A stretch of 64,000 nucleotides of DNA from a virus (taxonomy: Duplodnaviria > Caudoviricetes), in IMG/VR virus record IMGVR_UViG_3300027730_000005, one strand, 5' to 3'. Position 1 is the first letter of the stretch; the number at the start of each line of letters is the position of its first letter. Below the pieces are notes generated by a model that was not told the DNA's origin, did not search any database, and worked only from the letters and a program-made list of their open reading frames with translations. Of the stretch, positions 43,471-57,208 are shown one piece after another. Both the position numbers and the translations under genes were made by a program.

Positions 43471-44013
43471 TTATAGTCTATCTGAGCACACATCCCAGTT
43501 GATGATACGCCAGATGTTGTTGAGATATTTTTCTTTTTCCCACTGATAGTCAGTGGCCCAAACATGCTCCCACCAGTCAATAAGTACACATATATCTGTA
43601 CGTACAGCATGATTTTTGATGGTTTTGATCTCTCCACCGGTGCTCAAGTAAACCCAACCCGATCCCTGGATTTTCATTGCTGTTTCTTTCACAGCGTCTT
43701 GAAATGCTTCGTAACTTTTGAACTTGCGTTCAATCAGTTCCAATACAGCGCCTCTAGGTCGATTTGTGCCTCGGGGCGGTTGTAATTGTGGGAAGAATTT
43801 GTTGTGCAAAAAGCTACCTGCACGATTAAAATCAGCATCACCTTCGCCGGCATTGTAGCGTTTGGCATAGCCTTTGGCCAGATGCTCGTAGTGATAGTTG
43901 ATACTGTCTGCACTCAGCACAGGTGCTAACTCGTCAGTAGCATAAGGCAGAGGTGTAGTTTCCAGTTTGGCTGGTCTTGTGCTGGCTTCTAATAGATCAA
44001 TATGTTCACGCAT
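43471..44013 (-). CDS. sod: Fe/Mn superoxide dismutase
   Basis: LPY...L.P; metal ligands EH, LH, DWWEH; GSGWV. Confidence 0.9.
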   Translation of the reverse strand: MREHIDLLEASTRPAKLETTPLPYATDELAPVLSADSINYHYEHLAKGYAKRYNAGEGDADFNRAGSFLHNKFFPQLQPPRGTNRPRGAVLELIERKFKSYEAFQDAVKETAMKIQGSGWVYLSTGGEIKTIKNHAVRTDICVLIDWWEHVWATDYQWEKEKYLNNIWRIINWDVCSDRL

Positions 44014-44021
44014 GCAAGTAT

Positions 44022-44240
44022 TTAGCGCCGACGGGTAATACGCCCTTTGGTGAGATCATACGGTGAAAATTCAATCAACACCCTATCACCCAGTAAGATC
44101 TTGATATCATGCTTGCGCATACGGCCTGAGATATAGCCGATAACTGGGTTTTTTACACCATCTAACTGTATACGGAACATGGTATTTGGTAGGACTTCTA
44201 GTACCTTGCCTTCTAATTCTATGTTTTCTTCTTTTGCCAT
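44022..44240 (-). CDS. infA: Translation initiation factor IF-1
   Basis: [17 protein letters not shown]; ISGRMR..I.IL.GD.V..E.SPYDL.KGRI. Confidence 0.96.
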
Positions 44241-44251
44241 TGACCTATTAC

Positions 44252-44653
44252 TTAGCTAAAGTTGATTTCTGCTGTGATCTTTTGCAGACGGTCAAAACGG
44301 AAACTACGCCATTCATTTTTCTCCAGGTCAAATACTCGTAGACTGTGCGGATCTGGTTCTTTACGTGATTTCTTGCTTTTGACCAGCCCGTCCACATTTG
44401 CTGTGCTGGTGCTGAAAATTGCAGCATCAGGTTGTGCAGGCATCCGGCTGCTGTCTAGGGTACAAAGCATGTCACGTACAGAGCCATCGGCTTTGACAAA
44501 GGTCACAGTGATTGGGTTCTTTTGTAACAGACTGCGCACCCAGTCTCGGATTACAGTTTTTTCTGTGTCTGTGGATTCTTGATATTGTGTGCCCGGTGCT
44601 TTTTTGAGCAGTCGAAACACTTCACTCTTTTCCCAATCCATTATTGTATCCAT
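44252..44653 (-). CDS. WYL_2/Sm-like beta-barrel protein
   Basis: [13 protein letters not shown]; [14 protein letters not shown]. Confidence 0.8.
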
Positions 44654-44674: not shown

Positions 44675-44911
44675 CTACGACCACTTCAACGCAAACCAAG
44701 TTGCCAACTTTGGATCCTTGACTGTGATAGTTGGTATGTATTCAACTGTGGCGTCGCCCAATGGTTGTGGATTTATTTCCTTTTCAACACGCTCATAGAA
44801 CCAGTCATAATCAGTGCCGTCTTTGGGTTTGTTCAAATTGCCTCTGCCCACATTTTTCCACAACCATTCTGTACATCCTGATGGCACACCTTGCCGAAAC
44901 TCTAATGTCAT
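44675..44911 (-). CDS. Small 'F-x-L-K/R-W' family protein
   Basis: Ends ATWFALKWS; start reset to ATG 44911. Confidence 0.75.
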   Translation of the reverse strand: MTLEFRQGVPSGCTEWLWKNVGRGNLNKPKDGTDYDWFYERVEKEINPQPLGDATVEYIPTITVKDPKLATWFALKWS

Positions 44912-45156
44912 GACCACCTCAACAAGAATAACGTAGCATCTTTACTTTCCTCAAAAGCAACCTCTCCGCCCCACCATAACTGGTATTCTCCGCAGTGTGT
45001 GTTTATCCAGTTTATTACATCCTGGCTATCATGGTGCAAGAATAAATTTGGTACCTGGACAATGGTCCATCCCCGAGCTTTGCACAGCACTTGTGCATCA
45101 ATAGTATCAGACAAGTTTTTTGCAATTTTATCAATATATTCTTGTTGTAAATTCAT
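44908..45156 (-). CDS. Small 'LRW' family protein
   Basis: Ends ATLFLLRWS; TAATG overlap. Confidence 0.75.
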   Translation of the reverse strand: MNLQQEYIDKIAKNLSDTIDAQVLCKARGWTIVQVPNLFLHHDSQDVINWINTHCGEYQLWWGGEVAFEESKDATLFLLRWS

Positions 45157-45545
45157 TATGACCACCTTAATGCCGCCATTGTAGCATACTTGGCATATTT
45201 CTGTCTAATCTTTATTGATAGACGATTTGCAGCCACATCATTATTGGCCATACCCCAGTTCCAATCCCACCCTTGCCGACCAACATGCTGTTCCATCCAA
45301 GGACGATAATGATCGTTTGGGTCAGCACTGTCAACATATTCAAAGCATTCGCCTATACCCGACCATCCATCTCTATGACTGGGTCCAACTTTTACCGGTC
45401 CCTTTGGCCACGCTACATTGACCACAACCCCGGGCATGAATCTCCACCAAAGTTTGTCATAAAAATTAAGACCGCAAGGCGTCCACCTGCTGAGTCCATT
45501 CAAGTTTTTCCAACAGAACAATCCTTTGATTTCACTCTTGCTCAT
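45156..45545 (-). CDS. 'LRW' family protein
   Basis: Ends ATMAALRWS; ATGA overlap. Confidence 0.75.
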   Translation of the reverse strand: MSKSEIKGLFCWKNLNGLSRWTPCGLNFYDKLWWRFMPGVVVNVAWPKGPVKVGPSHRDGWSGIGECFEYVDSADPNDHYRPWMEQHVGRQGWDWNWGMANNDVAANRLSIKIRQKYAKYATMAALRWS

Positions 45546-45742
45546 GCCCACCTCAATGCAAACCACATGGCATCTTTACCCTCGCCAAAATAATACACGA
45601 TACTAGAGTCATTTACCCAACCACCGGGCACCGACTTTAGTCTTGTAGTATTAACAGACTCATTGGTAATATAACTAGGACAATTTTCTTTAGCCCATGC
45701 TAATGCAGTCCAATCTGGATCGTAGGGTAGTGTAACTGTCAT
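45542..45742 (-). CDS. Small 'LRW' family protein
   Basis: Ends AMWFALRWA; ATGA overlap. Confidence 0.75.
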   Translation of the reverse strand: MTVTLPYDPDWTALAWAKENCPSYITNESVNTTRLKSVPGGWVNDSSIVYYFGEGKDAMWFALRWA

Positions 45743-45969
45743 GACCACCTCAGTATAAACCAAGTACGATCTGCTTCTTCACGGAACCAATACTTTTGAT
45801 TACTGCCCACCCAACGAGCATTTTCTGTAAACCAATTATTTTGACCCATTATATCCAGCAGCCATTTATTCATATCATACCACTCTTGTTCATTATAGTT
45901 GTATGGTCGAATCCAATAGGGCCATTTGGGTTGATTGTCAGCATAACCAGTTTCAAGGCGTTTTGTCAT
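45739..45969 (-). CDS. Small 'LRW' family protein
   Basis: Ends RTWFILRWS; ATGA overlap. Confidence 0.75.
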   Translation of the reverse strand: MTKRLETGYADNQPKWPYWIRPYNYNEQEWYDMNKWLLDIMGQNNWFTENARWVGSNQKYWFREEADRTWFILRWS

Positions 45970-46355
45970 CGACGCATATGTGCAGAATCTTCTGCTGCCT
46001 GCCGATTGAACACTGGCTGCAAACAACTCTTGTGCATCACAGCAATGCCAATGATCTCAGTACCTGTATACACTTTGACGTTGGAACTAGTATCATGCCC
46101 TTGGGTCACGCGGCTAGGAATATGATGTGTGTTAGTACGACCCACTGGCGTGTTTAGTTTATACACCAGTGGGTCTGCTGCCATTGCCCGTTTACGCTTG
46201 CGTTCTTCAGCTTCCACACCCTGGCGTTTCAACAGTTCTTTCCAGCTTGAATCTAGCTCACGGGCACGAGCAGCTTCGGCAGCATTGCGAAACTTGACCT
46301 TGCCCCGCTTTTTGCCACTCATACTGAGACTGGGGTGTGCTAAATGCATTGTCAT
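45966..46355 (-). CDS. Basic hypothetical protein
   Basis: Start MTMHL; GGAG SD; promoter upstream. Confidence 0.7.
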   Translation of the reverse strand: MTMHLAHPSLSMSGKKRGKVKFRNAAEAARARELDSSWKELLKRQGVEAEERKRKRAMAADPLVYKLNTPVGRTNTHHIPSRVTQGHDTSSNVKVYTGTEIIGIAVMHKSCLQPVFNRQAAEDSAHMRR

Positions 46356-46378
46356 ATGTATCTCCAAGTAATGCTGTT

Positions 46379-46407
46379 ATTATAGCATATACAGGATTAT
46401 TGGTCAA
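46379..46407 (-). promoter_or_regulatory. sigma70-like promoter
   Basis: TTGACC-17-TATAAT. Confidence 0.8.
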
Positions 46408-56693: not shown

Positions 56694-56978
56694 TTACTTT
56701 TCTTCGTTGTTGATTAATCCGTTACTGCGTCGATCTGAAACATTATCTAGGTCTTGTTCCAATCGTCTTTCTTTGATTGATTTTATACCTAAAACTTTTT
56801 CTCCCGAGCAAAGCAAACATTTGGGATTGCCACAATCCAATGCATGGTGTTTCACAAACTTGTGAGGTTCTGTAACTGGAACTCTAAAAGTTTTGGCGAT
56901 CTTGGTTTGCTTTTTCACAGCATTCTCATCTTTTTGAATGCGCTTGTTTTTTTTGATTTTGTCTTGTTCTGTGCTCAT
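56694..56978 (-). CDS. Basic hypothetical protein with CGNPKCLLC motif
   Basis: ATGA-coupled to upstream LRW gene. Confidence 0.7.
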   Translation of the reverse strand: MSTEQDKIKKNKRIQKDENAVKKQTKIAKTFRVPVTEPHKFVKHHALDCGNPKCLLCSGEKVLGIKSIKERRLEQDLDNVSDRRSNGLINNEEK

Positions 56979-57208
56979 TGCCACCTCAGTAAAAATGCAA
57001 AATAATCTCGCTCACTGTCGAAATAAAAAACATATCTACCTGGCTGTTGATAATTGCTCATCTCTACCAGTTGCCATCGCCAATCATGCACCAGTTCATC
57101 TTTGCACCATTCGATCATCTGGTCCAGAATGCCTGTTTTCTTTCCAAGTTCATGCGAATGTCGAAAACTTTCCTTGTCGCGTACAGCATAATGATCTAAA
57201 ATTTGCAT
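56975..57208 (-). CDS. Small 'LRW' family protein
   Basis: Ends YFAFLLRWQ. Confidence 0.7.
   Translation of the reverse strand: MQILDHYAVRDKESFRHSHELGKKTGILDQMIEWCKDELVHDWRWQLVEMSNYQQPGRYVFYFDSERDYFAFLLRWQ

Follow-up and report, generated by a model that had tools for sequence, protein, structure and literature searches.

Why should five consecutive genes of a virus end in almost the same few amino acids when pairwise comparison finds little else in common between them? The question is raised by a window of 64,000 nucleotides from the IMG/VR virus record IMGVR_UViG_3300027730_000005 (Duplodnaviria; Caudoviricetes), where five successive small genes (45969-44675) and one distant copy share the C-terminus (F/A)-x-L-(R/K)-W-x, and where the codons of this motif read as a Shine-Dalgarno (SD)-like sequence placed just before the next start. 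The window corresponds to positions 28996-92995 of a single viral record (G000) of 153,873 bp with 42.6% GC, which by the CheckV estimate amounts to 44% of a genome and is thus a fragment of a giant phage. In the initial annotation it was proposed that the protein motif is partly a ribosome binding site (RBS) in disguise, making each gene a stackable cassette. The explanation favoured here, with a probability of roughly 70%, is that the locus consists of five diverged paralogues in tandem, with one more copy elsewhere, that its coupled junctions bear an SD sequence in the last codons of the upstream gene, that the amino acid motif would be primarily structural with codon choice as a second layer of selection above it, and that the junctions take part in recombination.

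Anatomy of the array and its junctions

All genes discussed here lie on the minus strand, and coordinates are given as window positions. The array opens with gene A (P0001, subfamily A; 45739..45969), which encodes 76 amino acids ending in WFILRWS (DNA CTGAGGTGGTCATGA). It is followed by gene Q (P0002; 45542..45742) with 66 amino acids and the end WFALRWA (TTGAGGTGGGCATGA), gene K (P0003; 45156..45545), whose 129 amino acids include a long N-terminal extension and end in MAALRWS (TTAAGGTGGTCATAATG), and gene H (P0004; 44908..45156) with 82 amino acids ending in LFLLRWS (TTGAGGTGGTCATGA). Gene J (P0005; 44675..44911), with 78 amino acids, is the last of the array; it ends in WFALKWS (TTGAAGTGGTCGTAG), with an AAG codon and a TAG stop that is not overlapped. 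The dispersed copy, T (56975..57208), lies 11 kb from the array and encodes 77 amino acids ending in FLLRWQ (CTGAGGTGGCAATGA). On re-reading, the six shared ends proved to be exactly as first described. When the entire record of 153,873 bp was scanned in six frames, only these six credible family members came up, and a family profile gave the same six.

At the coupled junctions the motif is always written around AGG-TGG. Junction A/Q (45739..45753) reads CTG-AGG-TGG-TCA-TGA, with the SD-like GAGGTGG separated by a 5-nt spacer from the start in the ATGA overlap (-10.1 kcal/mol). Junctions Q/K (45542..45556; TTG-AGG-TGG-GCA-TGA) and H/J (44908..44922; TTG-AGG-TGG-TCA-TGA) have the same 4-nt ATGA overlap, as does the 3' end of T, where CTG-AGG-TGG-CAA-TGA runs into the next gene. 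Junction K/H (45154..45170) reads TTA-AGG-TGG-TCA-TAATG, so that the overlap is 1 nt and the SD-like sequence is AAGGTGG (-8.9 kcal/mol). The distance from the GG core to the ATG is thus 5 or 8 nt, and AGG-TGG followed by ATGA or TAATG stands before the coupled gene in five of five cases, T included. It had also been claimed that J, with its AAG (LKWS), lacks this SD and that the gene after it has an AAGGAG of its own; both points hold, the AAGGAG lying at 44664-44659. When two mismatches at most are allowed, the 14-nt junction occurs six times in the window, five of them at family junctions, against 0.73 occurrences expected. Inspection of the sequence and a promoter scan of the array revealed no stem-loop, promoter or intergenic DNA between the array genes.

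This arrangement suggests a simple way of translating the array. Each coupled gene ends 1-4 nt past the start of the next one (ATGA or TAATG), so that a ribosome terminating on one gene could restart on its neighbour. The Arg-Trp pair written as AGG-TGG, together with the G of the preceding leucine codon, gives GAGGTGG, which would form six Watson-Crick pairs and one G-U pair with the 3' end of 16S rRNA. As it is located 5-8 nt before the next start, we infer that it acts as the SD sequence of the downstream gene and that the array genes are translationally coupled.

A protein family with a structured C-terminus

The five genes had been called otherwise dissimilar. This is correct as far as pairwise BLAST goes, which for most pairs sees only the last 8-37 residues, but all six proteins share a domain of approximately 55 residues. 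The family profile matches each of them over this domain with E-values from 3e-6 to 4e-18; these matches hold by construction, the six proteins being included in the profile alignment, and the independent support for the family therefore comes from the clusters found by the profile. Among 1.84 billion representative proteins, at least 3,625 clusters (50% identity) were detected at E<=1e-3, and the 150 best listed clusters are nearly all 56-144 amino acids long and terminated by the motif. The array genes are therefore diverged paralogues of one large family of small phage proteins, typically of about 60-120 amino acids. A search of viral contigs with gene A returned 39 related loci, whose arrays comprise at most nine or ten small genes that end in F-x-L-(R/K)-W-x; gene H as the sole query found no relatives among viral contigs. 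The relatives cluster into about 28 subfamilies. In five large related records the members form one array, with one stray copy in addition in G001 and in G004, an organisation also found in the genome of the window.

Alignment of the C-terminal 60 residues across subfamilies shows what the proteins have in common: first a helix carrying W-(C)-x-x-x-(F/Y)-G, then a Trp and after it an aromatic strand (F-x-F), and finally an acidic turn leading into the helix D-A-x-x-F-x-L-R-W. The family consensus is W-C-x-x-x-F-G ... F-x-F-x-x-E-x-D-A-x-x-F-x-L-R-W-S. The domain sits at the extreme C-terminus, as in all six window proteins F-x-L-(R/K)-W is followed by 0-2 residues only. Structure prediction, which had been recommended as a test for a shared fold, was run with AlphaFold2 on H and J and gave the same topology for both. 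The model of H (predicted local distance difference test score, pLDDT, 85.9) has strands at residues 31-34, 58-61 and 65-68 and helices at 44-54 and 71-81, preceded by an extra N-terminal helix; that of J (pLDDT 87.1) has strands at 2-4, 37-46 and 55-64 and helices at 13-20 and 67-77. The family domain is thus predicted to be beta-alpha-beta-beta-alpha, with the last helix ending in D-A-x-x-F-x-L-(R/K)-W-x.

Known families and structures say little about this domain. The six window proteins have no match in Pfam or PHROG, and among 105 of the best clusters scanned no Pfam family covers the domain and the only PHROGs hit are those with no named function. The profile has no sequence relatives in the PDB, and Foldseek against the PDB returned nothing at E<=1e-3. 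Compared with solved structures by VIA-align, the H core (residues 30-82) reaches Z-scores of 5-6.3 with a root-mean-square deviation of about 2 A over about 50 residues, the matches being generic folds. The arrangement is that of two-layer alpha/beta sandwiches such as the ferredoxin-like, RRM and ACT domains (Z<=6.3), but the scores lie in the range of common arrangements, there is neither sequence relation nor shared functional residues, and the modelled family domain would lack the final strand of the ferredoxin-like fold. In BFVD the models of H and J match overlapping sets of uncharacterised proteins of uncultured phages. The only named phages among the fold matches are Agrobacterium phage Atu_ph07 and Pseudomonas phage PA5oct, both weak, and with three members as tblastn queries no relatives among cultured phages were found in 50,697 phage records. 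No description of the family or of the junction design was found in the literature searched.

Some members and near-members of the family are of unusual composition. In three of the 105 scanned members (P0085, P0017 and P0109) an N-terminal extension corresponds to positions 3-48 of the Pfam family Gp23 and contains motifs like L-I-A-x-x-I-V-G-V-Q-P-M; it may be a capsid protein fragment fused to the domain. A link of the family itself to the major capsid protein was rejected, as these matches lie outside the family domain; no Gp23 gene was found in the record, and the window members have no Gp23-like extension. Two long cysteine-rich repeat proteins among the top profile rows, P0012 (506 amino acids) and P0023 (371 amino acids), score through repeated Q-C-S-x-W-C-T-x-x-C-G stretches at profile positions 22-55 only. 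They are unlikely to belong to the family and were probably picked up as false positives through the W-C-x-x-x-x-G helix.

The central question is whether the terminal residues are kept for the protein or for the nucleotides that encode them. It can be argued that LRWS is conserved mainly by nucleotide selection for an RBS and a start, and that no common protein function stands behind the common motif. In the family, conservation is indeed highest in the last five residues, the protein nearly always stops one residue past the Trp, and the last residue is free provided that the final base of its codon completes ATGA, GTGA or TTGA. Synonymous codons are also biased, with the motif leucine being TTG in 69% of the junctions against a background of 24% and AGR codons reaching 77% against 32%. 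The codon tally at the motif nevertheless speaks against this explanation. In 163 non-redundant junctions (the first 39 loci together with this genome), the codon at the Arg/Lys position is AGA in 68 cases, AGG in 31, CGC in 16, CGA in 10, CGT in 4, AAG in 18 and AAA in 16, and the residue is thus retained with codons of no or little SD potential: the junctions with CGC, CGT or AAA have none (-0.9 kcal/mol) and those with AGA have little (-3.5 kcal/mol). Codons vary even among orthologues, which use AGA, AGG, CGT and AAG in subfamily A, AGG, AGA and AAG in subfamily H, and AGG, CGA, AGA and AAA in subfamily K. Furthermore, any RBS would lie downstream of the conserved F, D-A and strand residues, L-K-W-S is retained by members at uncoupled array ends, and the helix closed by the motif is confidently predicted in two divergent members. 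Since the residues are kept without an SD and form the end of a predicted helix of the conserved domain, the amino acid motif is not explained by the RBS. The suggestion of an RBS in disguise thus fails for the residues themselves, and selection on nucleotides as their main cause is improbable.

A different solution is seen in subfamily B (L001-L039, e.g. L002:2490-2705), where the protein ends at the Trp and the next ATG lies inside the Arg-Trp codons. These read AGA-TGG or CGA-TGG followed by TAA or TAG, giving a 7-nt overlap, and the Arg codons all end in A (11 AGA and 8 CGA).

Codon choice at the motif

If the motif is primarily structural, as favoured here, the choice of codons would form the second layer. 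In this genome AGG makes up 106 of the 2,356 Arg codons (4.5%), against five of five at the motif. The predicted pairing of GAGGTGG with the 16S 3' end (-10.1 kcal/mol) compares with a mean of -3.05 kcal/mol at the other 51 overlapping junctions and -2.35 kcal/mol at random positions. The phage evidently uses SDs, as SD 4-mers, which peak at -11/-10, precede 50% of the starts with real intergenic space and about 40% of the overlapped starts, compared with 6.5-13% of random positions, the value varying with the sample. Although the six final codons of genes amount to only 2.8% of all codons in the record, they contain 16 of the 106 AGG codons, a more than five-fold enrichment; there AGG is typically part of an AAGGA- or AGGAG-type SD of the gene that follows, as in AAAAGGACCCAAAAATGA and ATCAGGAGCAAATGA. 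The AGG of the motif is thus one case of a genome-wide habit. A phage-encoded tRNA for AGG was considered as well and ruled out, since no tRNA genes are present in the record.

Comparison across lineages extends this observation. A test had been proposed of whether Arg is biased towards AGG only when a coupled gene follows. AGG is in excess among the Arg codons of coupled junctions in all four clades, namely this genome (5/5, binomial p 2e-7), L028/L029/L037 (8/11, p 2e-9), L040-L047 (30/32, p 1e-28) and the low-GC clade (18/98, p 7e-4), against backgrounds of 4.5-9.6%; these p-values assume independent junctions, an assumption that holds only approximately. L040-L047 are eight loci of other lineages with 37-49% GC that also bear arrays. 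At the motif, 29/31 of their Arg codons are AGG (30/32 when the set is defined by the profile), whereas in the remainder of these genes the share is 9.6%. ATGA, GTGA and TTGA all occur as start overlaps in these loci, and the third base of the last codon tracks the start codon. The four truly uncoupled junctions, including that of J, carry AAG, AAG, CGA and ACC, and AGG in none of four. Outside the low-GC clade the ratio of AGG to other codons is 43:22 at coupled and 0:3 at uncoupled junctions (Fisher p = 0.046, with few uncoupled cases), and adding subfamily B gives p = 0.003. AGG is thus in excess at coupled junctions and absent from the truly uncoupled ones, and in the low-GC clade AGA prevails. 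Taken together, the codon counts support the view that the choice of Arg codon is adapted to the gene that follows, in a lineage-dependent manner.

The same data leave hardly any room for coincidence, in which unrelated short open reading frames (ORFs) would simply have similar ends. Nothing but the shortness of the motif speaks for it; it is refuted by the six members in a record of 154 kb with none elsewhere, by the p-value of about 2e-7 obtained from the codons alone, and by the thousands of clusters in the family.

Several observations nevertheless weigh against an SD role of the motif codons. The low-GC clade (35-37% GC), which is the largest group, uses mostly AGA (59), CGC (16) and CGT (4) at its coupled junctions, and their predicted SD energies are only -3.5 to -0.9 kcal/mol. 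It follows that a strong SD would be helpful in some lineages and not essential. The idea that this clade has an SD-less host, suggested by SD 4-mers in 16% of the starts in short loci, was dismissed because 53% of the starts have them against 6.8% of random positions (120 kb of one genome), so that the clade does use SDs elsewhere. In this genome, too, the other 51 overlapping junctions have on average weak pairing. A leader ORF of 133 amino acids with no family assignment (45966..46367) precedes gene A. The two overlap by ATGA at 45966-45969, where nothing resembles an SD (+0.6 kcal/mol). Translation of the first family gene would thus depend on reinitiation without an SD, in contrast to the four internal junctions of the array. 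The string AG-RTG-G also provides an in-frame ATG or GTG two codons 5' of the ATGA start, and for this reason the ATGA starts are only putative. Finally, junctions within one clade are not fully independent observations.

A further difficulty is that AGR codons account for 50% at other R/K-variable columns of the family and 27% at invariant Arg positions, compared with 77% at the motif. This leads to the possibility that the AGG and TTG bias has nothing to do with translation and results from recombination or gene conversion at the junctions, with the repeat as a mere handle, or from neutral toggling between Arg and Lys in ARR codons. The AGR-rich variable columns agree with toggling, and a breakpoint inside the motif codons of L028 and an exact 14-nt repeat in the window that could support crossovers (both described below) agree with recombination. 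Homogenisation, however, should equalise the neighbouring codons as well. In this genome the Leu codons before the motif AGG are CTG, TTG, TTA, TTG and CTG and the last codons are TCA, GCA or CAA, which argues against simple homogenisation of the junctions. Toggling predicts AGA to be at least as frequent as AGG (backgrounds of 20% and 4.5%), yet AGG is found in 5/5 cases here and in 30/32 in L040-L047; it would account for part of the AGR excess, but as the entire cause of the AGR bias it was rejected, because it leaves both the 77% at the motif and the preference for AGG over AGA unexplained. CGG, which is likewise rare, never occurs at the motif, and the rare AGG clusters at the 3' ends of many unrelated genes, where it builds SDs. 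A non-translational origin of the bias is thus unlikely, and tuning of the codons to the downstream gene remains the preferred explanation.

Probable gene turnover at the junctions and known systems

The notion of stackable cassettes has gained support. The 40 loci, with about 28 subfamilies, display 32 different array architectures, and almost every junction in them is a 4-nt overlap. Neighbours vary: subfamily C follows five different members, H also follows five, and A precedes nine. The clearest breakpoint is seen in L028, whose last gene is an orthologue of H up to the Leu codons; from AAG-TGG-TCG-TAG on, including the AAGGAG and the WYL_2 start, it is far closer to the J end of the window than to the H end. 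Judged by this sequence, L028 appears to have lost J relative to the window, or the window to have gained it, by a crossover inside the motif codons. The window itself has an exact 14-nt repeat at 44908 and 45739, which would permit in-frame deletion of Q, K and H. More generally, the approximately 14-15 nt common to all junctions could allow recombination to drop or add whole genes in frame, and related phages would then differ in gene sets and order. In a database member of the J subfamily, P0047, the last approximately 20 residues are present in two tandem copies (…TITVKDEKKAMWFALRWTS followed by …TITVKDEKKAMWFALKWS), which is consistent with unequal crossover at a junction accompanied by stop loss.

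The array is part of a long same-strand series of accessory genes, and it would belong to one early-type operon of the giant-phage fragment. The only strong promoter-like site found in a consensus scan lies 5' of the whole operon. This sigma-70-like promoter candidate (46379..46407) has the sequence TTGACC-17-TATAAT with TG and matches the consensus at 11 of 12 positions, and is a pattern match only. Genes for a cell-wall hydrolase and NadE are found upstream of the array. Downstream of J is a WYL_2-domain gene of 133 amino acids (44252..44653), which has its ATG at 44653 behind the AAGGAG mentioned above. It is followed by a full-length homologue of translation initiation factor IF-1 (44022-44240; Pfam eIF-1a, E 2e-21) and a Fe/Mn superoxide dismutase-like gene (43471-44013), so that these three genes make up the region just downstream of the array. 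That a phage should carry IF-1 beside a seemingly translationally chained array is curious. The turnover of arrays between close relatives suggests a role in the arms race between phage and host; our best guess, held with low confidence, is that the array proteins are fast-turnover early proteins that bind host proteins.

The junction would be a clean natural example of one short sequence under double selection, for protein structure and for the translation initiation of the neighbouring gene, and the same solution recurs at every array junction and across many phage lineages. It would provide a simple model for the way in which giant phages assemble arrays of small accessory genes and rearrange them while keeping expression intact. 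The analysis also draws attention to a very large family (at least 3,625 clusters) with no match to Pfam, a functional PHROG or a solved structure in the libraries searched. A more far-reaching and tentative proposal, which we consider possible but doubtful, is that the last five codons form a portable four-in-one junction, serving as helix end, SD, stop/start overlap and recombination site. If so, any member could be added, removed or moved to another place in the array without loss of frame, and in every case it would hand the ribosome to the following gene. This would make the array a counterpart, at the level of translation, of integron cassettes or of the promoter-early stem-loop (PeSL) cassettes of T4-type phages, and may explain the expansion of the family to thousands of variants in giant phages.

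The principle of an SD within the 3' end of the upstream gene is already established. Intragenic SDs are typical of overlapping gene pairs and raise reinitiation (Huber et al. 2019, PMC6728339), and the C-terminal ends of genes are enriched in SD-like hexamers where the next gene is close or overlaps (Diwan and Agashe 2016, PMC4943179). Similarly to these systems, the array has ATGA or TAATG overlaps, an SD-like sequence in the last codons of the upstream gene with normal spacing, and a codon choice at the 3' end that is bent towards the SD. What sets it apart is that a single conserved dipeptide of a protein family (Arg-Trp as AGG-TGG) would carry the SD, and that this arrangement is repeated at every paralogue junction in many lineages, not being specific to a gene pair. 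Because the principle itself is textbook knowledge, the gain lies in the specific design and in the family, and not in a new mechanism.

PeSL cassettes are intergenic promoter-terminator units in the hyperplastic regions of T4-type phages (Arbiol et al. 2010, PMC2839356). Both systems have short repeated regulatory sequences between small genes, which in the case of PeSL are non-essential early genes, and in both of them relatives have gained, lost or exchanged whole genes at the repeats. The sigma-70-like promoter and stem-loop terminator that characterise PeSL between genes are absent from the array. Gain and loss breakpoints in the repeat are seen in one clear case, the H gene of L028 with the J tail of the window, and mosaic arrays with precise -4 junctions add support. 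Unlike PeSL, which acts on transcription, the junction described here is only about 15 nt long, lies inside coding sequence and would act on translation. What is particular to this system is that one dipeptide of a huge family would supply the SD at every coupled array junction, and that the same 15 nt appear to mark the breakpoints of gene gain and loss.

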